Both the position numbers and the translations under genes were made by a program. Under the pieces are notes generated by a model. That model was given only the letters and a program-made list of their open reading frames with translations, ran no database searches and was not told where the DNA came from. A stretch of 63,431 nucleotides of DNA, filler included, from Basidiobolus ranarum (Eukaryota): assembly GCA_040143965.1 (NCBI GenBank). It is 6 parts of 6 records of this genome, joined end to end, with 100 filler letters (N's around TTAATTAATTAA, not from the genome) between each part and the next. Parts side by side here need not be neighbours in the genome. Positions count along the whole stretch, not along the records: positions 21,212 to 31,706 come from JASJQH010000700.1; 5 more parts are not named here. One strand, 5' to 3'. Positions 10,513 through 52,974 of the stretch are shown here, piece after piece. The first letter of the stretch is position 1. Each line of letters starts with the position of its first letter.

Positions 10513-10612
10513 NNNNNNNNNNNNNNNNNNNNNNNNNNNNNNNNNNNNNNNNNNNNTTAATTAATTAANNNNNNNNNNNNNNNNNNNNNNNNNNNNNNNN
10601 NNNNNNNNNNNN
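10513..10612. other. Artificial contig-join linker (N44-TTAATTAATTAA-N44)
   Basis: Identical 100-nt block occurs five times; the 12-mer gives stops in all six frames. Confidence 0.97.
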
Positions 10613-15545: not shown

Positions 15546-16965
15546 TGTTGAAATTAGGTAAGTAGCAACTCATTATTGAGTAGTTAGTTCTTTCATATTC
15601 TGATGATTTAGCACTCATTTCTGCTATTTAAAAGCATGTATTTATTGTCCTAATGGATTGAAATACCAATTAGATTACTTTTACCAATTTTGACTATTTT
15701 CTCAAAACTTCTCCATATCACCTCAATTTTCCCCCAAGCTTAACTGGCATGTTTGTTGTAATCCAAGCACATTCAATAGTCCTATATCATAGTAAACTGT
15801 AAATGGGACATATTCACATCACTAAAACTTAAGTGTCTAATTCCCAAATCCAAATCTTGTCCAAAACACTTCCAAATCCCCTAAGCACTTTTCTCAGGCT
15901 ATGGGCTCTGTGCTAGCTGTTAATGGATTGTCTACTAGCACTATTACCAACCTTTTTGCATCCCCAGAGAGGTTCAATGGTGAAGACTTTCACCTTTGGA
16001 AGTTCAAGGTGCAACTGGTGCTGGAAGACAATGACCTTTGGGAATGCATTACCAAGGAAGAAATAGAGCTAAAGGGACCACCAGAAGCTATTGTTGCCTT
16101 TTGCAAGAAGCAAAGGAAAGCACTGTCTAAACTTTGTCTGCATCTCCAAAACTCTCATTTGAGGCAAATACAATCAGCCAAAAATATCCAAAAAGCTTGG
16201 GAAACACTTGAGGGAATATATGAGACTATAGGTTTTGCTGATAGGTTGTATCTGCAGTTAACATTACTCTCAATTCAGATGAATTCTGATGATTCTGTGC
16301 TTAATCATATATGTTGTATAAAAGCTATGGCAGATCATCACTCAATCATTGGAGCACCTCTAAATGAAGATGATTTAGCCATTACACTATTTAGGAGCCT
16401 GCCAGGCAAGTTTGGGAGCCTTGTAACTGCGCTAGAATCAAGATCAGAGCCATGAACAATGGACTATGTTGGTGCTAGGTTTTTGAATGTGGAATTAAGG
16501 AGATCCAATTCTAAGCAAAATAATGCTGATCAGGCATTTTTTTGGAGCTGTAAACATCCAACAGGCTTCTATAAGAGTGCTTATAATTGGAAATTAATCA
16601 TCTGTAAGTATTGAAACAGAGAAAAGCCATTTAATCAAAGATTGCAGCAAAAGGAATGTTGCCAAGAAAATAGAATTGTAACAAGTGAACAAGTAAGTAA
16701 TAATAGGGATCATCCATTTGTGTATGCCCTATCAGTGACCACTATATATAACTCAGAAACATGGTACATTGATTCAGGAGCTTCCCGGCATACATCAAAC
16801 AAGAAAGATTGGTTTTCCATTTTAAAACACATCCAAACTAAGAAAATCTACTTAGGTGTTGACTATGCACCAGATGCAGTTGGTAAGGGCATAGTTGTGC
16901 TCATTTTGACCTAAATTCCACTTCACCATCTGCAAAACTGGTTGATGTACTCTATGCTACAAATA
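15546..16965 (+). mobile_element. Copia 5' LTR (15546-15896), PBS, gag and protease; cut off by the next LTR
   Basis: TG...CA LTR; GGCTATGGGCTC PBS; FNGEDFHLWKFK gag motif; WYIDSGASRH protease motif. Confidence 0.92.
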
Positions 16966-17730
16966 TGTGGAAATTAGGTAAGTAGCAACTCATCACTTGG
17001 TAGTTAGTTTATTTATGTTCTGATTATTTAGACCTCATTTCTGTCATTGAAAAACATGTATTTATTGTAGTAATTGATCAAAATATCAATTAGATCCCAT
17101 TAACCAATTTTTGCCATTTTCTTAAACTTCTCCAAATCATATCATATTTTCCCCATGCTTAACAGGCATGTTGGTTATGATCTAGGCACATCCAATAGTC
17201 CTATTTTATAGTAAATAATAAATAGGACATATTCAATTCAATGAAACCCAAGTATCTAATTCACAAATCTAAGACTTGTCCAAAACACTTCTGTCAGGTT
17301 ATGAGCCCTGAGCTAGCATTAAAGGAATGTCTACCAGTACTATAACCAACATTTTGGCTTCCACAGAGAAGTTTGATGGTAAAGACTTTCAACTGTGGAA
17401 GTTCAAGATACGAATGGTGCTGGAAGATAACAACCTTTGGGCAACTGTGACAGGAGAAGAAATAGAGCCAAAGGGACTACCAGGAGCTATCCTTGCCTTT
17501 CACAAGAAGCAGAGTAAAGCACTCTCTACACTTTGTATACATCTCAGAGACTCTCAATTGAGGCACATACAATCAGCCAAAAATGTCCTTAATTGTTGGA
17601 AAAATTTTGAGGGACTAAGGCTATTTGCAACTCAGATGAACACTGATGATTCCATGCTTAATTACATAAATCAGATAAAAACTTGGGCAGATCAGCTCTC
17701 ATCCATTGGAGCACCTTTAAATGAAGATGA
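16966..17730 (+). mobile_element. Copia 5' LTR (16966-17296), PBS and partial gag
   Basis: LTR homologous to 15546-15896; GGTTATGAGCCC PBS; FDGKDFQLWKFK. Confidence 0.92.
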
Positions 17731-20250
17731 CTATTGTTTTGGGTTAATAAATCCATCTGATTGCTCCATAAAGATCTCTTCTTCTAGATCTCCATTCAAA
17801 AATATTGTTTTTATATCCATTTAATTCTAATTATGGTGATAGACAGCAGAGAGTACCAGGATTGATTTAATGGAGCCCTACTGGACAAATGTTTCATTAT
17901 AATTAACTCCTGGAGTCTGGAAAAACCTTTTGCAACTAATCTTGCATTGTACCTTTCCATGGTTCCATCAGTTTATTTTTTAGCTTTATAGACCCATTTG
18001 CAACCTATTTGCTTTCACCCGGATGATGGAGGACTTAATACCCATGTTTTACTGTCCTGAAGTGAAGATAACTCCTCAGACATTGCTTTCTCCCATAAAT
18101 TTTATTTTAGACATTCTAGAGCTAGCTTTAGAGTCTGTGGCTTGTCACAGAAGGCTGCAGAAGCATAGACATCATTGTTGGGAGTGCTTCACTGATTCCC
18201 TGGCTTCTTTATCCTTGTAGATGATCTTGCAGGTGCTGAATCAGCATCTGATGCAATTGGTGCTGGAATTTCAGCTCAATTGGGCTCACATACAGCTGGA
18301 AATTTGTCCAACACTTCATGAATAGCACTAAATGCATTTTCTGGATCAAGAACTGTGATTTGAGATGAAAAATATGCTTTTCCATCATATAGTCACATCT
18401 TGGCACTTAATGAACCTCTGATTTTTGGTAGCAAACATTTTGTAGGCCTTACAACCATCATAGTAACCAAGAAGTATGCAGTTGCTGCCTTTGGGTTCCA
18501 ACTTAGAGCATTTTTGTGCTGGAATTGGGCAATATACTGTGCAACCAAAGATCCTGTTATGATCCACACTTTTTTTTGATCCTCAGAGGGCTTTAAATGG
18601 AGTAAAATTTTATAGCAATATTTTTGGCATCTGTTCAAGATATAGACTGAAGTAGAGATAGATTCAGCCCAATAATTGTAATCTAACTTTGGATCATGTA
18701 ACATCAATGTCACCATCTTCACTATGGTCCTATTAGCACATTCTGCAACTCCACTTTGCCATGGAGTACAAGGTACAGTAGTTTGTTGCTTTTTTCAGTG
18801 TTCAGAACAGAAACTAGCATAGTCCTTAGAGCATTATTCTCCACCATGATCACTCCATAGAACCCTTATTTTTTGCACTGATTATTTCTCTACCATTGCT
18901 TTGTAGTGCTTGAACATAGCTAAGGCTTCAGATTTAAGAAAAAATACCTATGTTTATCTTATTTTGTCATCAATCATGGTCTTAAAGCACCTTTTGCCAC
19001 CTTGCAAGAAGTTTTTCATGGGCTCACATAGGTCAGAATGAGTCAGGGTAAGATTCTGAGTGAGTTTGATCTCACCAGAGCTTGAAAACAGCTGTGTGTG
19101 ATGTTTTACATGTATACAACCTTCACAAAGATCTAACTTGGTGTTAATTTCACTTTCTAAGCCTGAAACAAGATGATTTTGGATCAATTGGGTCAATTTT
19201 GATTTTGCCATGGGTAGGTTGGCATGCTCAGAATGAAATTTGTTGATACCTAGCTAGTATCAGTTTTGAATTCTGATCCCAGTAGTAAATTTGGTATTGT
19301 TCTGATTAGTGATAGTGAATTAAGCCCTGCTGATTTTGAAGTTTAGTCCTTGAACTGTTGCTAGACTTACTGAGAGGAGAGTTGTGGCTATATTTGGTAC
19401 TTAGAGTACATCTTCCAATTTTGTAGATGGTTTAACTAAATTTGGGTCTAAATTGATTACAATTGTGCCAGTAGATATTGGCTAGATTTGGTACATAGAG
19501 AACATCATCCTATTTTGCAGATGGTGTAGCTGAATTTTGGTTGAAGTCAAGCACAACTATGCCCTTACCAACTGCATCTAGTGTATAGTCATCACCTAAG
19601 TAGATATTCCTTGCTTGGATGGATTTTAAGCTAGAAAACCAATCTTTCTGGTTTGACATATGCTGTGAAGCCCCTGAATCAATGTACCATGTCTATAAGT
19701 CTTCCTTAGTGGTTGCTGATAGGGCAGACACAAAGAGATGTTCCCTATCAGTGCTTTTTTGATTTGTGTGTTTCAATTTTAGCTTTTTGGCTACAATCCT
19801 TTTTCTGCAATCTTCAATTTAATGATCAGATTTCTTGCAATACTTGCAGATGACAGATTTCCTATTAGGAGCACCATAATTGAAGCCTGTTGGACATTTA
19901 CAGCTCCAAAAAATGCCTGAGCTACATGGTATTGCTTAGAATTAGCTCTCAATGCCCTATTCAAAAACCTCTTACCATCATATTCCATCATTAATGGCTC
20001 CGATCTTTAATCAATGACAATTGTGAGGCTCCCAATCCTATCTGGTTGGCTCCCAATTAGTGTCATGACTAAGTTATCTTCATATAGAGGTGCATCAATG
20101 CATGAGAGAAGATGTGCCACAGTTTTTATCTAATTTATTTGATTAGCCATACTATCATCAGAATTCCTCTAAGTTGAGATCAGTTTTTGCCTAAGATATA
20201 GCCTGTTAGCCAGACCTTTAGTATCATATAGTCCCTCAAGTGTATGTCTC
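17731..20250 (-). mobile_element. Degenerate copia internal region (gag, PR, INT, 5' RT)
   Basis: WYIDSGASQHM, CEGCIHVK..HSDLCEPM, RIFGCTVY, CILLGY and YNARLVAK-like text on the minus strand. Confidence 0.9.
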
Positions 20251-20258
20251 TCACTTGA

Positions 20259-21111
20259 TGTTGAAATTTGGTAAATAGCAACTCATTATTTAGTAGGTAT
20301 TTATTCATATTCTGATTATTTAGCACTTAATTCTACCATTTAAAAGTGTTCATTGCTTTAATTGATAGATATATATTCAGAACACTTTTACGAATTTTTA
20401 CTATTTTCTCAAAACCTTTCAAATCACCTCAAATTCTCACTCATGCCTAACAGGCATGTTTGTTATGATCTAGCACATCCAATAGCCCTATTTCATAGTA
20501 ATATATAGATAGGATATATTCCAATCAATAAAACTTAAGTGTCTGTTTCACACAATGAAAGCTGGTCTGAATTCAGATGAATCCTGATATTCTATGCTTA
20601 ATCATATAAATTGGATAAAAACAATGGCATATCAGCTCTCATCCATTGGAGCACCTCTAAACAAAGATGACTTTGTCATGACACTACTTGGGAGCCTGCC
20701 AGATGAGTTTGAGAACCTCATAGTTGCCCTAGAATCAAGATCAGAGCCACTAACAATGGAATATGTTGGTGCTAGGCTTTTGAATGAAGAATTAAGGAGA
20801 TCTAATTCTCAGCAAAATAATGCAGAACAAACAATTTTTGGAGCTGTAACACATCCAACAGGCTTCAATAATGGTGCCCCTATTAGGAAATTCAGCATCT
20901 GTAAGTATTGCAAGACACCAGGCCATTTAATCAAAGATTGCAGAAAAAGGATTTTTGCCAAAAAGCTAAAATTGGAACATGTAAATCAAGTAAGCACTGA
21001 TAGAGATCATCTATTTGTGTCTGCCCTATCAGTACCCACTAAAGAAGACTCAGAAACATGGTACATTGATTCAGGCGCTGCCCAGCATATGTAAAACAGG
21101 ACAGATTGGTT
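20259..21111 (+). mobile_element. Truncated copia LTR (~20259-20550) joined to gag zinc knuckle and protease
   Basis: TGTTGAAATTTGGTAAATAGCAACTC; LLGSLP, CKYCKTPGHLIKDC (CCHC), WYIDSGAAQHM. Confidence 0.9.
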
Positions 21112-21211
21112 NNNNNNNNNNNNNNNNNNNNNNNNNNNNNNNNNNNNNNNNNNNNTTAATTAATTAANNNNNNNNNNNNNNNNNNNNNNNNNNNNNNNNN
21201 NNNNNNNNNNN
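21112..21211. other. Artificial contig-join linker
   Basis: N44-TTAATTAATTAA-N44. Confidence 0.97.
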
Positions 21212-21654
21212 GCTCCATATACACTCTTGGCCTTTATGGTTGCCTGACCACCGTGAGCAGGGACGTCAAGAGTGTACGACTCGTCAGTGTCAAGATCGAG
21301 CCTGATATCGCTGCCACTAACACGAATCTCAAGTGCACTCAGCAATGGGAAGTTACCCTTGGGTCCAAGTGCTTGAGTGGGTACTGAGGTGGTAGGGGTA
21401 GGGAATGTAGTCTTGTCAACTGTATTAAGGAGTGAACCAAACTCCCCTTTGATAAAGATCAATTTTTTATAGCGGTCTACTGCTCTCTCAAGAATATCGG
21501 CTCCAACAGGGGCCTTGATGGAAATGTCAAGATTATTGTGATCGAGGTGAATAATATTATGGCCAATGTCCATCCTGTGAGGCAAGGGCCAAACCCAAGC
21601 CAAAGAAGAAGAAACCAAGAGAGAGATGGAGGTAAGAAGTTTAATGGCAATCAT
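21212..21654 (-). CDS. Beta-N-acetylhexosaminidase (GH20), N-terminal part, cut by the contig end
   Basis: Signal peptide, VWPLP start and DESYTLDVP...ATIKAKSVYG, typical of the GH20 N-terminal domain; TATA-like box near 21715. Confidence 0.88.
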
Positions 21655-22054
21655 AACGCAAACTAAAAGTCTATTGCTTCAAAATTAAATAAGGTAAACA
21701 TTCTGACAAGTCACTATATATAGGATTTCTAGTGACTGGGCTTTTGACTGATTTTAGCTTGGTTGGTCTTGCATCACGTCTCCAAAACTCCTATTTGCTT
21801 GAAGCGATTTTACGTGCAGCTATAGTATTACGTCAGAGACAATTAGATTGTCTGTTCAATTAAATCTTACTTTTTCAGTACTCTTAAGTGTGTATGAGTA
21901 TCTAATCAACATGAGCTCAGCTTAATTATTAAATTTTACCCCATTCTGTACTAGATATCTCAATGTACACATGTTATGTGCCCATACGCAAGATTCTATG
22001 CCATATATTGTGGTTAGAACCTGATGTCTCAGCATACAGGATTTTACTCTAAAA

Positions 22055-22170
22055 TTAGACGATGTCAGTACTTTCTTTAGACGAATCAAAATAAATTCTT
22101 AGACGCTTTACTTATCCTTTTTGGACGAAATGAAAATAATATTGAGACGATAAAAATATTAGTTTAGACA
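22055..22170. repeat. Phased direct-repeat array: six TTAGACG-like motifs with a 22-bp period
   Basis: Motifs start at 22055, 22077, 22099, 22121, 22143 and 22164 (TTAGACG x3, TTGGACG, TGAGACG, TTAGACA). Confidence 0.85.
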
Positions 22171-22213
22171 AGATAACAATGGCCAAAATGATGTTCTTTA
22201 CCTGTAAGAATCT

Positions 22214-22435
22214 TTAAGGAACAACCACATTCTATGTGGCACGTTATCCTGTTGGACGAGAGAAGATATCGGGTCGTTCATTACCGGACCAAAATTGGGT
22301 TGAAATGAACATCATATTTTTAGCCGCAAGCACGTCTCGACTCCAGAATATATTAAATTCGTTGTAGATCAATATATTGTAGAAGGTACGTTCTTGGATA
22401 TTCGTAGCTCAGTCCACGTTGGGTTCACACAGTAC
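22214..22435 (-). pseudogene. Degenerate C-terminus of a Fanzor/TnpB-like RNA-guided nuclease (decayed zinc finger plus RuvC-III)
   Basis: Manual translation ...RTFYNILIYNEFNIFWSRDVLAAKNMMFISTQFWSGNERPDIFSRPTG*RAT*NVVVP* fits CxxCxxxWNRDxNAAxNM...RPxxFxR; not in the supplied ORF track. Confidence 0.75.
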
Positions 22436-24975
22436 CTATTCCCAATACTCATGTCTTTAGTGACATACGAGTGTATGGTACTAGTACAGCTCTACCCCCA
22501 AGTATAGTGTAGTAGTTATTCAAAATGTTTACCAACTCTACAGCTAGTTTTGACATGTCAGCCACAGTAATCCAACAATCTCGTTCGCACTGGCTTTTGG
22601 AAAAGTCATTGTTATTCATTATCCATGATTCCTTGAGTTGAATCAATATCGATGATACATATGAGAAGTAAAGAAATGATCAACAACTGCAGGAAACTTG
22701 GTAATCCAATTCTACCACATAAATCGGCCATTGGGGTTGCTGCACGTTCTTGCTAAATGGCTTTACTAAAACTGTAGTATAGCATTTTCCAGAGCGGGAT
22801 ACCAATGTTGTTAAGCTTACCTGTAGCTGTAGATGTAGATGTAAATATAAAAGTGAGCCGAAGTATTATGTAGATAAATTGCTCAACAACAACTCTATGC
22901 ATGATCTCCATTTGGAAGGTGAAGTCCGATTTTTTACTATCACATATCTTTCAGGAAGCACACATTCTTCTATTCATAATTGCATACTTGTATGTATTCC
23001 GCATATTCTCATAACCCTCCGCCCATTGTGTAAACTCTGATTGAAATTCGAATATCCATAGCTTTTACTTTGAGAAGATGGTTGTAAAGCTAGTGATAAA
23101 CACTCATTAAGTTTAGACCATTACTCCTGATTGGAAGCTGCGGAACAAATAGCTTTACTATGGAAACTTCCTGAAGATTTGTATAGAGCGTCCATTTACT
23201 ATCAACCGAAAACTTGTTGTGAGTATGCATCAGACAACACATATTCCCGTTTACCACTTGCTATCGTTTAATCCCGCATATCTCAGGAAATCTATTTGGA
23301 ATCCAAGCGTATTTACATGTATGCACCCTGCCACTTACAACTCAGTACATTTCTTCTAATACTATTGTTCGTCATTGCGTGATTGGAGATACAGAGCAAG
23401 ATATATAGATTGACGTAGATTTATATGAATAATCCATTTAAACTTCTTGATATTAGGTTAATTGGATGATTTTATGGCTAGTGGTTGTGGTAGAGCTTAC
23501 AAGCATTGTAGGCATGATAAAATAGGGATGAAGGATACATGTACTCTGATGGTAGACTATATCTTGATCAGGTCAGTTCTTATAGTAGTAAATTTGTTGA
23601 ATACTGATCTTTGGGTGTACTCCGAAAGATTCACCCTCCATTACTGAGATATAGTAAAGATTACATGTTCACTCATCCAACTATCTGTGGGAGAAACAGA
23701 GAACGAGGATTACATATGATGGTACACTATCCAATATTATGAAAGTTAATGATTTCGTTTAGATGGCTGTTGCTTTTTATAAGTCTGAATACTTACCGTC
23801 ATCGCTCTATAATAATTACGAGAGTCACTGTCAATCTCAAGGGAGCAAGGTTTGCTATGGATTTCACCAGGTTGATCAACAAAATATTTTCTTGAATATC
23901 TAGAAACATCTGCTGATTCAAATTGTGTGAAAGGGAGTATTCCGTTGGGTTGATCTCTTAGATGCTCAAGAGCCGGCCGATGGTATCGAACAAATAGCTT
24001 AAGAGGAGGTCAGTCATGTAGTTAAATTGGGAAGTCGATGTAAATCACGAATCAATGATTGAACGGTAACCCGTAGCCTGTTTCTGCCTAGCCAAACTTG
24101 CAAGTGCATGTCTTTGTATATCGCTCATATGCATGCTCAGAATTGAATTTTCTTAGTTCCACATCACTATATATATATATACGTGTCAACCATCGCCTTT
24201 TTAATATCCTACGCATAAAACTCACTCAAACATTCATAAAAGTAGTCCGATTGATTAGTAATATGTAGCATCCGTATTGTGAGATTCACATTGATTGTCA
24301 AGGTTAAGTACAAATATGTATAGAGATGACATCAACAGTATTTGGTCAATCTGACAAATGGTCCAGCTTATATTCGGATCAAACATTTACTAGTGAAGAG
24401 CAACTTCATCTTAGCGGTGTAGCCCTCAATGGTTTTGATTGAACTTGCCGTCAGGATATACACTCCATCGAGATACGTGAACTTCGCGCAACCATATAAA
24501 AGTATTCTTACTCTTGCCATTTTATTACCGTATAGAGGGACGGTTGATTCTATGGATCCTGGATCAATTGAGAACGCAGGAAAGGGATTCACAAGCTTAA
24601 CTGCTTGAGTAGAGCAAAGTATCTGCAACATCCGGTGAATCGATAGCTAATAGAACAATGTGGCCAATGCATGCCGAAGAGAGAAAGGATTGTGGTGGGT
24701 CATATACTCTACAAACAGTCGATTACAAGCGAGAAATATATTCAATGGAATCAAATTCCTCCGAAGTTTGAATGGATATGGAGCGAACGAGGTAAAAAGT
24801 AGTGAGAATTTTCCTTCCACTCATCCCTCCCATTATTCTCCAGCAGATGAAAAGTGTCGATTATGATTCACCTCATACGCGCATATATATAAGCAACCTT
24901 CTCCCCCACTTCTTGCTGAGAATTATCAAAGTACTTCCCTAATTTTAGTCAGTTTCGTCTTCTCTTTTGAAAATC

Positions 24976-28564: not shown

Positions 28565-29380
28565 TTACCATGCAGTGGACTTGCTACTTTTTGGGTTGCG
28601 AGCTGGTAACATTTTGAGAGTTCCTTTGTTGTAAGGGACGGTGTTGATGACAACATTAGTATTCCAGCCCTTCTTTTCAAATGACTTACGGGCATTCTTA
28701 TTCTTAGAGTCCCAGCATCTGTTCCACTTACAAACACCAAGACGATCGCCCCAGCCAATAGCGCAAACTTGTTTCTTTGGATTACGAGCATCACCACCTT
28801 CGAATGCGGCTGGTTGCTTGTTTCCCTTGGGACCACCTTTAACAATGATATCGGAGCAAGAGTAGAAGTCACCATGACCTTGAATTGAACCATACCAAGA
28901 CCATTGCATAGTCCACTCGCCATCACCCAACCATTTTGGAATCTTGATTGCAGTGTTACAACCTTTTCCGCGAGTGCCTAATTTGTCATTGTTGGATTTA
29001 CCTTGACCGGAGCAACCAACGCCAGCTTCGTAGCAGGAGTATTTATGGACGTTCTTGTTAAATTCATTGGCACTCTTGGATTTCTTGGTTTGGGCGAAGG
29101 CTAAGCGAACAAATCCACCAGGATGATTGTTTCTTGCCCAAGAAACCTTGATCTCGTCCCCTCTCTTGTAAACCTTACGCTTATTAAGTGGGGTGACCAC
29201 CGTGGTCTCGCAAGGACCATAGCATTTCTTAGGATTGGAGCCAGTGAATGTCTTACCATCCAAGCGGCACTGACCGCGATCAACGCGTGGGGCAGGGTTG
29301 GTCAAATAGGAATGACTTTCGACATTCCCAATACAAGCTAAAGCTAGTACCGCCAAAGTAAGATAAACTTTTCCAAACAT
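28565..29380 (-). CDS. Secreted histidine-brace, LPMO-like copper protein (family unassigned), Lys-rich and intronless
   Basis: Signal peptide ends ...VES|HSYLTNPAPR (His1); second His in RNNHPGGFVR; WTMQWSWY and FYSCSDIIV match the LPMO QWxW...YxxCxD pattern. Confidence 0.8.
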   Translation of the reverse strand: MFGKVYLTLAVLALACIGNVESHSYLTNPAPRVDRGQCRLDGKTFTGSNPKKCYGPCETTVVTPLNKRKVYKRGDEIKVSWARNNHPGGFVRLAFAQTKKSKSANEFNKNVHKYSCYEAGVGCSGQGKSNNDKLGTRGKGCNTAIKIPKWLGDGEWTMQWSWYGSIQGHGDFYSCSDIIVKGGPKGNKQPAAFEGGDARNPKKQVCAIGWGDRLGVCKWNRCWDSKNKNARKSFEKKGWNTNVVINTVPYNKGTLKMLPARNPKSSKSTAW

Positions 29381-30289
29381 GATGCTCCTAAAGTATTATG
29401 AATAAAGTATGAAATAAACTTCAATGTGCGCTGCACAAATTCGATATGATAAATGAAAGAGACGAAGATGTATGTATTTATACGAATTCAAGGTTTCGAC
29501 TTGGTATAAATCCCGAATTTCTACAAGTCACTTTGAGTTACAGTAATAATTCTAGTATCACCTAGGGAATATACATTTTCGCGAAGATAAGACCGGATCG
29601 AGCGGTCAAAGACACCATTCATCTTGCGATGGGTACTCTTGACAATAGAGACTCACTTGCATTGCTCATCCTTAAAACTCTTAAACTTTCCGTGGGGTCT
29701 CAATATAACGCGCTCACCATTGGCTTACATCATAATTTAATATATTTAGAATCAAATCTTAATCAGAGAAAATCTTAATTTCAGTCACAGCATTAAGGTA
29801 ACGTGAGCGTAATTTATTGAGTTTTTGTCACCCGTGAACTGGTGTAGGTCTTTTCATTAAAAGGAAGTGGCTCAAAGCCATCCGGCATCAGCTAGCCTAA
29901 TATGCAAAGAGGTGGGAGTACCAAGGGAGAATCTCTTTCAGTTTTGTCCGAAGAGACCTCAAAGCGACCCCGTTGATTTTTCATTCACACATCGAAGACA
30001 AAGTATACTAATGCATGTATGTATGAGTTTCACTGGGTTGATCTTATCATTCTAATTCAAGATATCCACTGCGATCAATTTTATCTGTCATAACTACTAT
30101 TCAGCAGTGAAGGTCAGAATCATGTTAAGGTCCTCTGTGCCGTCGCCGTCATACAGCATTTAGCAACAAGGGGAATTTGTTCATAATGTCGATAATCCCA
30201 CTTTCCTATTATAGTTCAATATTTGATAAATACGCCGCAGAAACGACGGACTATTGGATGATCAGGAGAATGCGCCCACAATGGGCAAG

Positions 30290-31706: not shown

Positions 31707-31806
31707 NNNNNNNNNNNNNNNNNNNNNNNNNNNNNNNNNNNNNNNNNNNNTTAATTAATTAANNNNNNNNNNNNNNNNNNNNNNNNNNNNNNNNNNNNNN
31801 NNNNNN
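31707..31806. other. Artificial contig-join linker
   Basis: N44-TTAATTAATTAA-N44. Confidence 0.97.
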
Positions 31807-38955: not shown

Positions 38956-41900
38956 TATCAAATTTAGAAAATTAAAATGAAAATGCAGCTGCAAGAAAAG
39001 GGACTTTGGGACACAGTTGTAGGGGATGGAAATATATAAAAAATTATCTGAAACCAAAATTTTACCCCAGCTAGAAAAAGAACAAAGTGCCTTTAACAAA
39101 TTTGTCATAATGGTGGCAAGAAGGTATGGAGTGCCTCAGAAGACACCTACCAAACATGCTTTGAGGCCAACAAGAAGCTTCTGGGAAGGCAATATGCTCA
39201 CTTAAAGATGTAGCCAGAAGAAGGCATTAAATACTCATGGATAGATTTGATATTTTAGTGGATGACATGGAATGCATTGGAGTACCTACAACTGATCAAG
39301 GTATCATAGTTACAGTCCTGAATGACCCACCACACAAGTTTCAGAGCCTAGTAATACCTTTACAAATAAACAATATCAATTTGATCTTAAACTATATAAT
39401 TGATAGACCTATGGATGAATATTTATGCAAATCAAGATTCAGCTAAAAGAATGAAAAACAGGCTCTAATAGGCTATTATAAACTTTCCTAAATAAGGTCA
39501 AAAGTGCTTTGAAATAAAAGTAACACATTTTGTGATAATGATAGAAAACTGGCAATTTGAGTAATGATTACTTTGAAAGAACTGCAAAAGAAGCAAAATA
39601 TACTGAATCTGGAATGTCTTTGCAAAAAAAGATTACTTGTCCATATTGCCTCATACTGTGCCAATTAACAAGGATTCTCAGAAGTGGTATATTGATTCTG
39701 AAGCCTTGCAACATTGCATAAATGAAGAACTTTGGTTAGTGAATTACAAAGAAATACTAATCAGACTGGTTTTCTTGGGAGATTACAATACATTTTATGA
39801 AATTGGAATGGAAACAATTCAAGTCAATTCAACTGCAGCTTCTGAAGAGAAAGTATATACATTTAAGGATGTATTCCATGCTTCAGATATTGCCAAGAAC
39901 TTGATATTTGTATGCAAGGCTATCTCAGAAGCGCTAAAATTCAATTTTGAAAAGTCAAAATGTGCCATCACCAATCAAAATAGGAATGATTTTGATTTGA
40001 GATAAAAGGATCAGAGATGATACAAACCTACCTAAAATTAAGAAGGTTTATGTGCAACCATTTGTTATTTTAATCAAGAAGATATTCAATTATGGTATCA
40101 GAGATTTGGTCATTTTGGTTTTGATTATTTGAGCAAAATGATCAGAAATTGCCTATATTTGGCAATTCAATTTAACTTCCCATCTAAAATGGAAATTTGT
40201 GAGGGTTAAATACATGTATATTCAGGTGGGAAAAGACACTTCATCACATTTATTGATGATTATTCAATATGCACTTGGGTCTACTTTATAGAAGAATTAG
40301 AAAGAGCTCTCTTTATCTTGGGAGATTTAAAATACTTATGGAGACTGAAACCAGAACTAAAATCAAAAAAATTTGTGCAGTCAATGGTGGTAAGTTCTTC
40401 AACAGTTTTCAATCACTTTTACAAAGTCCATGGTATTAAGCAAGACACTACTGCCTTCTATTCACCTGAACAAAGTGGAGTTGATGAAAAAGCAAACAGG
40501 ACTATGATATAAATGGCAAGATATATGATGAGTGCACAAAATTTACCTTATAATTTTTAGGTGGCATCGTTAGATAAAGATGTATATCTGAAGAATAGAA
40601 GTTTTACAAGAGGTTTGTCTAACTCTATGCCATGTCAAGGTTGGACTGGAGTTAAGCCTAATGTAAAATATTTGGGGATCTTTGGATGCATTGCTTATGT
40701 CAAAATGATGACCAAAAGATGGTCTAAATTTGATCTAATAGGTAAGAAATGTATATTTCTGGGTTATTGGACTCAAACTAATGCCTAAGGACTCTATGAT
40801 ACCAAAATATCCTAGTAAATCAAGTCCAGGGATGTTACGTTTGATGAAAAGGAAAAATATTCATCCACATTGACCTCACATGATGACAAAAATCAATTTT
40901 CTTCTGATTCAATCATTCAAATTGTTTTAAACCAAAACAATGAAGAAAATAGCATTCCTGAGGACCCTGTGACCAAAACTCTACCAGAAGTTGCAGTACT
41001 CTCAACCCAAACCAGTAGATTAAACAGTTCAGAAATACCCTTGATTACTGTATCAACAAGTCCCAAAATAGGATCTCTGCCTGCACATCAGTAGTACATG
41101 AGCCTCATACTTCAAAAGTGGTCCTGAATGGCCCTGACACAAAATCTTGGGGAGCTGCAATGGCTGATGAGGACCATGCTTTGATTTACAATTATACTTG
41201 GACTCTAACCAATGGATTGGATTATTGAAAATCAATTGGCTTCCATTATGTGTTTGAAGTTAAGTACAACCATGAAGGCAATAATGAAAGGTACAAGGCT
41301 AGGTTAGTAGCCAAAGATTATTCCCAAGCACCAGGAAGAGATTATCTAAAGATCTTTGCTCCTGCAGCAAAATGTAATTCAATTAGATTGATTTTAGCAA
41401 TCACAACTAAGAAACAGCTTATTATACATCAAATGAATGCAAAAAAACACTTTAATGAATGGTAAGCTTGCTGAGGAGATTTACATGACCAGCCAGAAGG
41501 GTTTGTGGACCTAGAAAACTTTGAAAAGTTTACAGACTCTGGACAATGCTTTATAGCTTAAAGCAAACTCCATGAGCTTGAAATAGCAAGATAGATACTT
41601 TTTGGAAACACTCATATTCCTAAAGTGTAATGCTGACTGTAATATCTACTTTGGGCCAGTAAAGATAAACCTCATTTATTTAGCCTTATATGTAGATGTT
41701 CTGATTATATAACCAATGACTCATAGACTTTGGAGAAAGCCAAATCCAGCTTATCTGCTAAATTCAAAATGACTGATCTTAACAAATTAACATAGTATCT
41801 TGGAATAAAAAGTTAGGATAGATTGAACTACCAATACATAAGCTTTAATGCAGTCTAAGTCTATCCTTGATATAACAAAGAAGTTCAAAATTCAAGAATG

Positions 41901-42148
41901 TAATCCAGTATCTACCCTAAAAAAGATAAAACTTGATCAAAAATTGCTTGATTCAAAAGTTGTTGGATTCAAATAAAAGCCAGAAATTTCCTTGTCAATG
42001 TATGGCTGGTAGTTAGTTGTCTATCATGGTTGGAGCATTGCTACATATTGCATATTTTGTGGGAATTATGTGCTAATATCTTCAAAATCATCATTATGAT
42101 TAAGTCATAGTACTTAAGCAAATTTTCAGATAATTAAAAATCCTATTA
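38956..42148 (+). mobile_element. Degenerate copia internal region (gag-PR-INT-RT), different family, interrupted by the CCCTA terminus
   Basis: WYIDSEALQH, FITFIDDYS, PEQSGVDEKANRT, IFGCIAYV, RYKARLVAK, LALYVD. Confidence 0.9.
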
Positions 42149-42299: not shown

Positions 42300-42399
42300 N
42301 NNNNNNNNNNNNNNNNNNNNNNNNNNNNNNNNNNNNNNNNNNNTTAATTAATTAANNNNNNNNNNNNNNNNNNNNNNNNNNNNNNNNNNNNNNNNNNNN
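42300..42399. other. Artificial contig-join linker
   Basis: N44-TTAATTAATTAA-N44. Confidence 0.97.
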
Positions 42400-44506: not shown

Positions 44507-45914
44507 CCACTATGCTAACAATTGCTAGTTGAATATAGGTTTATCATTGGTTGAGTTTGATACAACGTTTGATTGATTACTTGAGGTTGGTCAAATTGAT
44601 TTGAGTCAGATACTCTACCCGTTATCTTCAAGTCCAAAGAATCACCTCATTTAATACTGGAAATGGATCTATTTTCATACGATTACCAACCCTCATAAAT
44701 AAATATGAAAAACTCAGTAATCCTTGCTTTGTATCTGTAAAACATTTCGATAAATAAAGGGATAAGCGGAGAGATGCTATCTGGAATTAGATGTTGGCAA
44801 GCAAGAAGTTTAGAGGAATTGTATAGTTCAATTGCAAAAGTGCCAAGAGTTCCAGTGTAAACACTGATGCAACCACTAGACTTTGATTTGCACTAGTTAC
44901 AGTCAGAGTGATATCTATGAGACCAGCGACATAATTCCACTTAATCTATTTCAGTATAGTGTCCGTGGATTCGAGCAGGTAATGATTAATCTGAAACCTA
45001 GTCGTGAAAAGGATGAGTGTATTCAACTATATCGTGAAGTAAAATAATATTACTGCTTGATTAAGACATATTGTATAATAATCTAAAGTTGTCAGTATAA
45101 ATTTATCCAAGTAGTTTTGGGTGGCTTAGCAGTAAAACACAGACGGCGATCTATATAGTTTACTATTATTGGGCTTTGATATCCACTCCACACGCATTCA
45201 CTCCTCTTGCTACGGTCTTATTTAAGCATTAAAATACAACTTTTTCTTGATCTTTTCACTGATAGCAGCAATTACTGAAAACGGAAGAGCTTGGGGTGCT
45301 AAAATTTCAGTCCGTGATATACAATATATACCTAACCAAGAAAAATATTGGTTTACATTGAGGATAAATCTGCAGAACTTGGACCACACTCTGTTATATA
45401 ATTTCGAACGATTTGATTTCTCTATTAATATGTCCATATGTCACTAAAAGCGGTAATAACTCTGACTTTAAACTCCCAACTGCAGGCGTTGGCTGAACTC
45501 TCAAAACTTCCTTTTTGAGAATTACAACCGATTAAAGTCTCAAAAAAGGCATTGATTTAAATAACTGTTGAATGCATTTATAATCTTACTGTATTGAATA
45601 ATTCAGAAACGTTCTGAGGATAGTTTTGAACTTTCATATAATCTGGATACTGCAATTTAGTTTGAAGTTGGATAGAGTCAATTTACAATGCATAATGATT
45701 GGATGATTGAGTCAGAGATACCCACGGTTTTGGGAAAGAGCTTTACCAGGAACCAAGGAGTTAAATCTGATTTAAAAATACTTCGAGTCGGGAATGCTAG
45801 TTACTCTTCTTGGGAACTGATTGAACTCAAAAAATAGACTGGCTAAGCCGAGGCTGTGCGAGATATTGATCCTAAAATTAGAGTATGAGAAAGTTATAAT
45901 GCAACATATATAAT

Positions 45915-48889
45915 TTGACTCAGATTAACATAAATGCTACATCAAAGTCACGTCTTAAATCGAGTATATATATTCCGGTGATTTCCTTTGTAGATCAGCA
46001 AATGAGTAAGGTTGAGTTCAGAGAGAAGGATAGGCAAGCGCTCGAGATCCAGAACTGCATTTCTCTAGCTTGTGCTATTTCTGGAAATAACTTTGATGCC
46101 GTGAACACTCATCTTCTGCGACCAGGAACTACCATACATAGCGTGGTAAAAATCGCCTCAGAATCACGCCACAAATACGTTATTGCCGAGTCTGAAGAGA
46201 ATGGCCTAAAGACAATATATGTGGCATTCAAGGCTACAGAAACCAAAAAGGATATTCTTACTGATGTAAGTATTGCCAAGTATACATCACTAGGAAGCTT
46301 CGATGTAAATATTCACACTGGCTTTTACTGGGAGGCAATGAAGATCTCTTTGGGCTTTTTTATATCCAAGTTAACTCAGAGAAATCAAGAGAATATCAAA
46401 CTTATCTTCACGGGTCACTCTTTGGGAGGTGCAATTGCCAAATGTGTCGCTCTTACCCTATTACAAATTCCTGAGATCAGACAAGAACGACTTTCTGTGT
46501 ATACTTTTGGTTCACCACCCTTTGGAGATGCTAAACTCGCTGAGTTTTGTAACACAAACCACTTCCGGGCTTTTATCGCATTCCGCAACAACCAGAATGA
46601 TATTATATCTATCGCTACCGAAGTGGCTCTCATTATGACCGCAACGCTACATGCTCTTGGTGGAAACATATACGACTTTCTCCACAAATCAAGTTGTGCA
46701 TCGATAGAGTCTCTACAATATTTTATGGACAAAATTAGTAAAATCACAAATATAGACAATTTTATCCACTTTGGGCAACATTATACCTATTCTGACGTAA
46801 CAAAAACGTGGTCTCTTATGTCCGAGGTGGAAATTGATAGAAACGCTCGAGAAAGCATCGATACCAACGCATTGCATAAGGAAGGGGTTGGAAGAACAAT
46901 CAAACATCACTACGTGGAGGAATACTACCGGAATCTAAATCAGTTTCCTGAAATAAGAGATATTAGAGAATGCTACTCAAATACTTCGCCCATTTCGCGT
47001 TATACTGAGTGTCTACCGGATATATCTGAGGTTATAGTACTCTCAAAATACAGGATCGACCGGGAACTCTACTGTGATCTCATCATTAGGGGAACGAACA
47101 TTTGCCATACTGTCTTCTGGCAGAAATAGAAGTGATGCCCTTGGAAATTGGAAAACACTGTTACATCAGAGATAGCTAAGAGAGCTTTAAAGATAGTTTC
47201 TAAAGATATCTCAAGAGAACAGTTCACGTAGGAACCAATCTTTGGTTCGGTGCGAAAAACCGTGAACATAGTTGACCAAACCTCTAGGAGTTGGGAAAGA
47301 CATATTGAAAGCATGGGAATAGGAGAATTACTTAACGTTGGCTTCATATTTTCCGCCTATGAATTCATTGATAACCAGCAACGTAATCGGCTCTGTGTCA
47401 TCATGGACGACTTGGAGAAGGTTATTGGCAACCAGGACACTGGAATCTACAAAATAGAACTTGACGAAGCGTATGAGCATTTTGTCAAACTACTAACTGG
47501 GTAGAGCTCGGTTCAAGATGATCATAGAAACAGTCAATCTGATACAGATCTGAAACCATTTTCAACCGGTACATCTATTATAAATACAATCGTCACCCCA
47601 ACGAGCGATACTATGACTTATACTGGGGCCAGAAGAAGTGTTACAGATATTGGAGCATACGAACTGCAACAACGCCTAGCCAAGAATGTGACTCTTAGAG
47701 TTCTCCATCTATTCATGGCAGGCGATATGTCCCGGTTCGTAAATCTTTCCAAGAAGATTGGAATACGTATGGATATCAATCCTAGTTCCTTGTTAATGCT
47801 TAGAAAGTGGGCTGTATATGTATCTAAGTTTCTGGTATCCACTACCGCCTTATCTTTTGTTCCCTCTGCATACACTTTAAGGTCCACGGTTCGAAAACTC
47901 GACCAGGATCATCAATACAAAGCATCCCTATACCTGAAGCATATGGAGAAAACTCAGTTCAATGCAATAAGTAAAATACTTGGTAAATTGAGTACTATCT
48001 CTACCAAGTCGTACTCCACAACAAAGAAGATACAAAACATAGAGGAGTCTATTTATAAATTTTTACGAGAAAAAGGTCTAGCTACATACGAAGATATTAC
48101 ACGAATCAGGGTCAGTTACGAGAACCTCGATGTTAAGCCGTACAGGGATTTCATCGCAGGGACAAACCTATGGAATGCCAAAGAGAAAGTGGTACCACTA
48201 CTTAATATCCTGGAAGTCACCATGATGGTACACGAAATACGCGACATCATTAGAAGTTATTATGTGGTCAGGATTATTGGAGACACCAGGTCAGGAAAGA
48301 GCAGTTTCTTGTACAAACTGGGTTTCGACTCGAATCCCAACACATCAGAAAGAATACTTGATGTAAAGGTTCACAGAACTCAAACAAATAGTACTAAGCT
48401 TGTAATGGTAGATTTTCCTGGGATGGACTCACACCCACAGGCCACTCAAGATAACATCTATTACAATGCTATGATCATTGGCACGTATGTCGTCATTGAA
48501 AACATCGAAAATGCACACAACAGTTCCAATTTTACCGACATGTTGGCAAAGCATATGATAAGAACGCAAGACAGCAGTAACTACATGATCTGAGCCATGT
48601 TGATGTATACATACTGGATATCCTCAAGAAGCACGACATCCCAACTGCGAAAGAAATACTGGAATCCGTGATTGCACAACTCCGAATGAAACTTCAACAT
48701 CTAACTCCAAATGCTGAAATATATCCTGTATGTCTGGTTTTGGATTACAACAACCTCCCTGCAGGGCTCGATGAAGGCATCTTGCAATCATGTGGAGTGC
48801 TAGATTCAAGGAGAATGATGAACAAGATTAAATGTTTGCTGAATAGAGAGGGCGTAGCATGTGAATTGGATCACTTTAACTACCGATAG
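45915..48889 (+). pseudogene. Disrupted lipase class 3 (alpha/beta hydrolase) plus C-terminal P-loop GTPase fusion gene
   Basis: ORFs at 45915, 47250 and 47613 share one frame, split by stops at 47127, 47133, 47229 and 47502; FTGHSLGGA, YTFGSP, NDII; GDTRSGKSS (G1), DFPG (G3); a 4-nt deletion near 48590 shifts the LSHVD (G4-like) segment out of frame. Confidence 0.8.
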
Positions 48890-52874: not shown

Positions 52875-52974
52875 NNNNNNNNNNNNNNNNNNNNNNNNNN
52901 NNNNNNNNNNNNNNNNNNTTAATTAATTAANNNNNNNNNNNNNNNNNNNNNNNNNNNNNNNNNNNNNNNNNNNN
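52875..52974. other. Artificial contig-join linker
   Basis: N44-TTAATTAATTAA-N44. Confidence 0.97.

Follow-up and report, generated by a model that had tools for sequence, protein, structure and literature searches.

The cataloguing of Fanzor1 elements in Rhizopus, Mucor and Phycomyces goes back to 2013, and four Fanzor1 families were described in Rhizopus oryzae (Bao & Jurka 2013, PMC3627910). According to the supplementary table of that paper, ROr-1, ROr-2 and ROr-3 all have a 2-bp TA target-site duplication, and a Mariner transposase is entered for the first two but not for ROr-3. ROr-3, as tabulated there, is 2862 bp long, with 133-bp terminal inverted repeats, the 2-bp TA duplication, a Fanzor protein of 720 amino acids, and a value of 16 in what we read as the copy-number column. 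At its right end, as given in the same source and counted by eye, ROr-3 contains six GTCT motifs with spacings of 22, 22, 22, 21 and 22 nt, the last of them lying 23 nt from the terminal G.

The second system of direct relevance is Spu-1 of Spizellomyces punctatus with its nuclease SpuFz1 (Saito et al. 2023, PMC10432273; PDB 8gkh), whose omega-RNA is described there as starting at the stop codon, extending across the 3' inverted repeat and taking in a further 14-15 nt of flank. Other Fanzor RNAs are described as abutting the right end of the transposon (PMC10530073). Bacterial TnpB proteins (IS200/IS605 and IS607; OMEGA) carry the RuvC-III motif RDxNAAxN after a C4 zinc ribbon.

Here we compare with these systems a short stretch of a 63,431-nucleotide sequence of Basidiobolus ranarum (assembly GCA_040143965.1; six parts joined end to end, hereafter the window), in which a first-pass annotation had noticed a Fanzor/TnpB-like nuclease C-terminus and had taken it to be the right end of a decayed element. 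We conclude, with a probability of roughly 0.88, that positions 22037-22396 on the minus strand are what remains of the right end of a Fanzor1-carrying DNA transposon of the ROr-3 type, a solo piece that is truncated on its 5' side and bears point mutations. The span proposed at the outset, 22040-22435, was thus nearly exact, the homologous stretch being 22037-22396.

Results and Discussion

Identity of the coding remnant

The minus-strand frame on which the annotation was built reads exactly as claimed when 22408..22214 is translated: the stop-to-stop ORF (22408..22244) encodes ATNIQERTFYNILIYNEFNIFWSRDVLAAKNMMFISTQFWSGNERPDIFSRPTG and is closed by its stop, after which the same frame continues with RAT and a TAG (22234-22232), and then with NVVVP and a TAA (22216-22214). 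The ORF is short and its 54-residue peptide by itself has no Pfam match, both of which would favor a chance ORF, or an exon of a host gene, unrelated to any Fanzor or transposon. This reading is refuted, however, by the similarity searches (tblastn, E 3e-22; family HMM, E 4.8e-15), by the match falling precisely on the C-terminus of both the relatives and SpuFz1, and by a transposon terminal repeat whose distance and strand are as expected.

In a word-indexed search, a Rhizopus microsporus protein of 256 amino acids (P0001, PF07282) proved 85% identical over 87% of the peptide; in tblastn its residues 201-247 align with 22396-22256, with 40 of 47 positions identical, and this is the alignment that gives the E-value of 3e-22. 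Over the same stretch P0002 (789 amino acids) and P0003 (590 amino acids, Benjaminiella) are 46.7% and 55.9% identical, respectively, and all three proteins pass the Pfam cut-off for PF07282, the Cas12f1-like TNB domain. A family HMM, constructed from 226 aligned segments of 153 proteins and run on 3437 six-frame pieces of the window, produced a single match in the whole window (22408-22247, E 4.8e-15, profile positions 725-772 of 788), with the next best at E 3. The sole PDB sequence with an E-value up to 10 for the peptide is that of SpuFz1 (8gkh), which matches with residues 996-1027 of its 1032-residue construct (E 0.027). Its RuvC-III segment aligns with 13 of 32 residues identical, and its ...GRPxVFSR ending lies equally far from the end of the protein. 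The single HMM match, together with the C-terminal alignments of P0001 and SpuFz1, identifies the piece as a Mucorales Fanzor1 C-terminus with the rest of the gene absent from the window. Judged by homology, then, 22256..22396 on the minus strand is the C-terminus of a Mucorales Fanzor1 nuclease, which bears out the original assignment.

This remnant comprises the last 47 aligned residues of the nuclease, that is, the second half of the zinc finger, RuvC-III and the C-terminal segment. The RuvC-III motif (W-x-R-D-x-x-A-A/S-x-N) reads WSRDVLAAKNM at 22345-22313; its W-S-R-D (22334..22345, minus strand) aligns with the WNRD of the relatives and the YWNRD of SpuFz1, and the codon of the catalytic Asp is retained.

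Further candidates elsewhere in the window were set aside. A pair of Fanzor-like tblastn matches at 41587-41684 (E 0.6) resembles, by eye, a copia-type reverse-transcriptase relic. Two weak RuvC-I-like matches (24162-24091, E 8.5; 23937-23866, E 37) and an HMM match at 24009-23749 (E 3.8) are not colinear, score about 3 bits and are regarded as noise.

The subfamily to which the remnant belongs is widespread in Mucorales. Searching representative proteins exhaustively with P0002 by phmmer returned 1190 at E ≤0.001, 523 at 1e-10 and 91 at 1e-30, and its named members come from Rhizopus, Mucor, Chlamydoabsidia, Mycotypha, Benjaminiella and Backusella. P0002 carries the motifs VDPGRRD, INEFRTS, CNSC, CSTC and WNRD, and it aligns with SpuFz1 at RuvC-I (VDPGRRD versus IDPNKRD) as well as at the C-terminus. 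All four motif classes are present in three of the 22 relatives examined, namely P0002, P0162 (Mucor saturninus) and P0168 (Rhizopus delemar), and these three have both the RuvC-I Asp and the RuvC-II Glu; among the R. microsporus gene models the nearest are fragmentary, at 65-356 amino acids. Live members of the subfamily therefore probably exist in Mucorales, to go by the motifs in these three proteins. The earlier expectation of intact family members in the lineage is thus borne out only at the level of Mucorales in general, one of the three being from R. delemar.

The ATSNVV-like tail, which had been put forward as typical of fungal Fanzors, turned out to be a true signature of the family, since it is seen in the C-termini of the relatives: exact ATSNVV occurs in five of the 22 proteins examined and the variants ATLNVV or ATTNVV in two more, and distant members continue through ATSNVV(A/V)...HSGES.... 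Among viral contigs, none of 54 pattern matches was confirmed. Metagenome contigs yielded nine loci related to Fanzor1, none of them with both element ends.

With bacterial TnpB the locus shares the RuvC-III motif, and its relatives match PF07282. It differs from TnpB in its eukaryotic host, in its carrier, which would be a cut-and-paste, TA-targeting element with long terminal repeats and not of the TnpA type, and in that the copy in the window is without all other domains.

State of the copy

Homology to every Fanzor relative ends at 22397..22400 (minus strand), as judged from the protein alignments. Upstream of the Gln-Glu-Arg at 22396 the relatives P0001, P0154 and P0157 read ...HQRNL(K/R)HHT(A/V), where the window reads ...ATNI, and no reading frame restores the relatives' match upstream of 22396. 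Using P0001-P0003 as queries, tblastn finds no other part of these proteins anywhere in the window, and nothing in the window matches HMM positions 1-724, which include the RuvC-I Asp and the RuvC-II Glu (next best E 3). Pfam searches of six upstream minus-strand ORFs returned nothing but a meaningless match to an SH3-WW linker (E 0.17). Because RuvC-I and RuvC-II are missing, what the window holds is a relic of a Fanzor1 member and not a member.

The part that was retained has not escaped mutation either. The second CxxC of the zinc finger is intact in all 23 relatives that carry the RuvC-III motif, and P0001, P0154 and P0157, all from R. microsporus, have ICNDC where the window has IYNEF. 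The site (22355..22366, minus strand) now encodes Y-N-E-F (TAC AAC GAA TTT), with Tyr (TAC, 22366-22364) and Phe (TTT, 22357-22355) in place of the two cysteines, whose loss had been correctly spotted. The single-base routes suggested for it, TGC>TAC and TGT>TTT, are plausible. A C4 zinc ribbon of two CxxC pairs is accordingly not to be found here, the second pair being YNEF and the first being absent.

The closest copies are P0154 and P0157, from the latter of which the window differs by seven residue changes. They end in ...FSRPTGQRAT, and the window reads ...FSRPTG, stop, RAT, stop; it follows that the TAA at 22246-22244 replaces a Gln and that the subfamily's own stop corresponds to the TAG at 22234-22232, four codons after the premature TAA. 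At the position of this TAG, which is the natural stop of the Rhizopus subfamily and falls within a hairpin loop, more distant relatives have a Ser (ATSNVV...). The divergent tail of P0001, QQDNAPHR, comes from the same stretch when its frame is shifted by one base (22254-22231, which gives QQDNVPHR).

With RuvC-I, RuvC-II, the WED/REC parts and the first CxxC all gone, with YxxF for the second CxxC and with an early TAA, the copy is dead by its predicted protein and no nuclease is possible from it, just as had been proposed. The word "decayed", on the other hand, fits in part: there are a few point changes, but the damage consists mainly of a sharp 5' truncation at about 22397. The fragment most likely has no present-day role.

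The terminal repeat and the boundary of the element

Beyond the coding remnant, the 3' non-coding DNA runs for about 60 nt and contains one stable hairpin before it gives way to an array at 22037..22172 (minus strand), about 136 nt in length, in which six subterminal YGTCYNA motifs begin at 22170, 22149, 22127, 22105, 22083 and 22061 (spacings of 21, 22, 22, 22 and 22 nt). This chain of six is the only one longer than one on either strand of the window, and in 300 first-order Markov simulations the longest chain was one (242 runs) or two (58 runs). The phased repeats that had been noticed are therefore real; they are, first of all, a terminal inverted repeat.

The resemblance to the right end of ROr-3, as given in PMC3627910, extends from the repeat number to the terminus. 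The 22-nt terminal motif of ROr-3, when allowed up to three mismatches, has its sole match in the window at 22041-22062 (minus strand), with three mismatches and 0.01 matches expected by chance. Compared by eye, the last 27 nt agree with those printed for ROr-3 at 23 positions (window, ATCGTCTAATTTTAGAGTAAAATCCTG; ROr-3, ATCGTCTCATTTTAGATTAAAACACTG), and the distance from the last GTCT (22060) to the terminus is 23 nt, the same as that counted by eye in ROr-3. The terminus itself, ...CCTG, is at 22037, and a TA dinucleotide (22035..22036, minus strand) lies directly outside it (...AAAATCCTG), as read at the right end only. Both ROr-3 and the window thus have six GTCT-core motifs about 22 nt apart in a long terminal repeat (133 bp versus about 136 nt), a Fanzor1 gene that reads toward the right end, and a TA outside that end. 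Owing to the same number and phase of the repeats and to the terminal match, and as judged from one end, from a comparison by eye and from one 22-nt motif, the array is best explained as the long terminal inverted repeat of a TA-flanked transposon of the ROr-3 type. The call of a right end is borne out in this way, with the putative element class and TA rule being read from that end alone, and the six phased repeats are probable binding sites for a transposase.

The likeness to ROr-3 is nevertheless not complete. The window holds a fragment of about 360 bp as opposed to a 2.9-kb element, and the ROr-3 protein is, by eye, about one-third identical over the C-terminus as compared with 85% for P0001, implying that protein subfamily and type of terminal repeat are paired differently in the window. 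The subfamily words AAKNMM, GNERP, GNGRP and TSNVV are likewise absent from the protein supplement of the 2013 catalogue in its available part (PMC3627910). Spu-1 is also TA-flanked and has inverted repeats according to the supplementary table of the same paper, but these are 30-33 bp long and contain no six-fold phased array.

A terminal repeat of this kind could, in principle, also belong to an internally deleted, non-autonomous "ghost"-like element that kept both ends and was mobilizable, and not to a truncated fragment. Non-autonomous derivatives are common among such transposons, and 134 Fanzor-less loci with both inverted repeats are reported for S. punctatus (PMC10432273). Such an element should have a partner for its right end, and none is seen: neither strand of the window contains a second copy of the terminal 28 nt (≤3 mismatches), region 21500-24600 has no inverted match elsewhere in the window beyond chance matches of 18-25 nt (E 0.58), and there is no second cluster of YGTCYNA, the best 150-nt window on the other strand holding two motifs with a longest chain of one. 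We thus give scarcely any credence to this alternative. With no matching left terminal inverted repeat within the 63-kb window, the element is represented by a solo right end, as our preferred reading of a 5'-truncated fragment has it.

Going by what has been published on other Fanzors, the intact ancestor of this fragment would have been carried into TA sites by a Tc1/mariner-type transposase that was provided in trans and attached to the phased repeats, and an omega-RNA would have been loaded onto the RuvC nuclease for RNA-guided cutting of DNA.

The 3' region and the question of an omega-RNA

The first-pass annotation had further proposed a candidate omega-RNA end composed of a hairpin, a possible second stem and the repeats. 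We know of no published omega-RNA for this Fanzor1 subfamily. By analogy with the systems introduced above, the scaffold of the ancestor's omega-RNA would have lain in 22231-22037, with the guide starting at 22036. For Spu-1 the omega-RNA was shown experimentally, whereas the window is known from sequence alone.

The first hairpin, with its core GCCACAT-AGA-ATGTGGT at 22240-22224, is present and locally stable. Over 22217..22250 (minus strand), where it spans the end of the ORF, it folds at -11.3 kcal/mol (z -2.94, none of 200 shuffles as good) and comes within the top 1.5% for stability when 616 44-nt windows between 20000 and 24500 are compared. The second stem, TTCTTA-CAGG-TAAAGAA (22194..22210, minus strand), did not hold up: with -1.1 kcal/mol (z 0.13) it is no better than chance, 92 of the 200 shuffles folding equally well. 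The 241-nt 3' region as a whole folds no better than its shuffles (z -0.57, 51 of 200 as good), the terminal-repeat parts give z-scores of 0.31 and 0.69, and Rfam has no match at E ≤1 within 21700-22700.

Aligning the window with three of the metagenome relatives, L003, L005 and L007, in RNAalifold yields a 4-pair hairpin only, at the corresponding position of the alignment (total -0.9 kcal/mol), in which two of the four predicted stem pairs show compensatory changes in the two closest of these relatives. A conserved stop-codon hairpin was considered and rejected: among nine rows only the window (1.5%) and L003 (4.9%) stand out, the other seven lying at 14-87%. L003 (3551-3590), L005 (2315-2355) and L007 (1385-1412) have in common a block of non-coding sequence, ...TTGTGGTAAGAGATTCA..., located at the stop codon or immediately behind it, which could be a conserved 3' intron or part of a guide-RNA scaffold. 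The by-eye impression that the window shares this post-stop block (AGATT..TAC..GGTAAG) failed a profile test, in which a profile of the three blocks produced 27 matches in the window up to E 430 and none at 22185-22262. A splice-donor-like GTRWG occurs near the end of the ORF in eight of ten rows, one of which, L002, is uninformative, as its contig ends inside the ORF and the position given as its stop is no stop codon; the pattern is absent from the rows of L006 and the window. A looser GTAAAG, outside the GTRWG pattern, can be seen by eye in the window at about 22202-22197. The omega-RNA of the relic is thus a candidate for which these indirect tests were mostly negative and the first hairpin alone is notable.

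It is conceivable that the orphan right end is still transcribed and that its omega-RNA, with a guide taken from the host flank, is used in trans by intact Fanzor1 proteins. Omega-RNA-like orphan loci are described in S. punctatus (PMC10432273) and in Chlamydomonas reinhardtii (PMC10530073), the hairpin at the end of the ORF is locally stable, and, set against ROr-3 as published, both the terminus and the non-coding part look little altered. However, the region as a whole has no significant fold, and the nearest R. microsporus gene models are the above-mentioned fragments, so that we consider this very improbable and retain the truncated, inert right end as the preferred reading. A related speculation starts from the position of the 22250-22217 hairpin, which coincides exactly with the codons for ATSNVV, the tail motif found across the family: this hairpin might be the 5' stem of the omega-RNA, the tail being kept by the overlapping RNA structure and orphan ends supplying guides in trans. 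We see this as a long shot.

Significance

A truncated, dead copy adds no new biology and matters little in itself. It does, however, mark a Mucorales-wide Fanzor1 subfamily (the 1190 representatives at E ≤0.001) whose signature words fall outside the catalogue proteins of 2013 as far as their supplement is available, and it shows this subfamily riding on a six-repeat terminal structure like that of ROr-3 as published. In addition, it fixes the right boundary at 22037, which is needed for locating the guide-RNA scaffold of the subfamily.

Genomic surroundings

The window has about 37% G+C, and the surroundings of the relic are rich in transposons. Decayed copia-type LTR pieces lie at 15841-16455, 17312-17824 and 20588-21094 (plus strand), at 18954-20006 (minus strand) and at about 41300-42100 (plus strand); the ORFs at 15841-16455 and 20588-21094 match Retrotran_gag_2 and a zinc knuckle, the others are gag-like by translation, and the stretch near 41600 has, by eye, the look of a reverse-transcriptase relic. 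A TGTAGA hexamer array (3.7 copies, 22822-22843) is found about 430 nt upstream of the relic, to which it has no apparent link.

About 390 nt downstream of the relic, on its own strand, is an ORF whose N-terminal domain is beta-N-acetylhexosaminidase-like (21212-21678, minus strand; PF14845, E 2e-13), with a signal-peptide-like start and a start codon that we place near 21650. A polysaccharide deacetylase gene is located 2.7 kb from the relic on the opposite strand. Further away, the minus-strand ORF at 28565-29395 encodes 276 amino acids, is Cys-rich with a signal-peptide-like start and has no Pfam match; cleavage as predicted would leave a His at the start of the mature protein (…NVES|HSYL…), a feature that recalls copper-dependent lytic polysaccharide monooxygenases. 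On the plus strand there are a class-3 lipase ORF at 45900-47129 (PF01764, E 3e-20) and, after it, an ORF at 47505-48593 whose P-loop GTPase-like matches, to IIGP and SRPRB, are weak and stay below the cut-offs (E about 1e-3).

Finally, runs of N occur at 10513-10612, 21112-21211, 31707-31806, 42300-42399 and 52875-52974, each of them a pair of 44 Ns around 12 bases, with a period of about 10.6 kb. Their regularity looks like masking rather than assembly gaps, and one of these pairs interrupts the hexosaminidase-like ORF just downstream of the relic.
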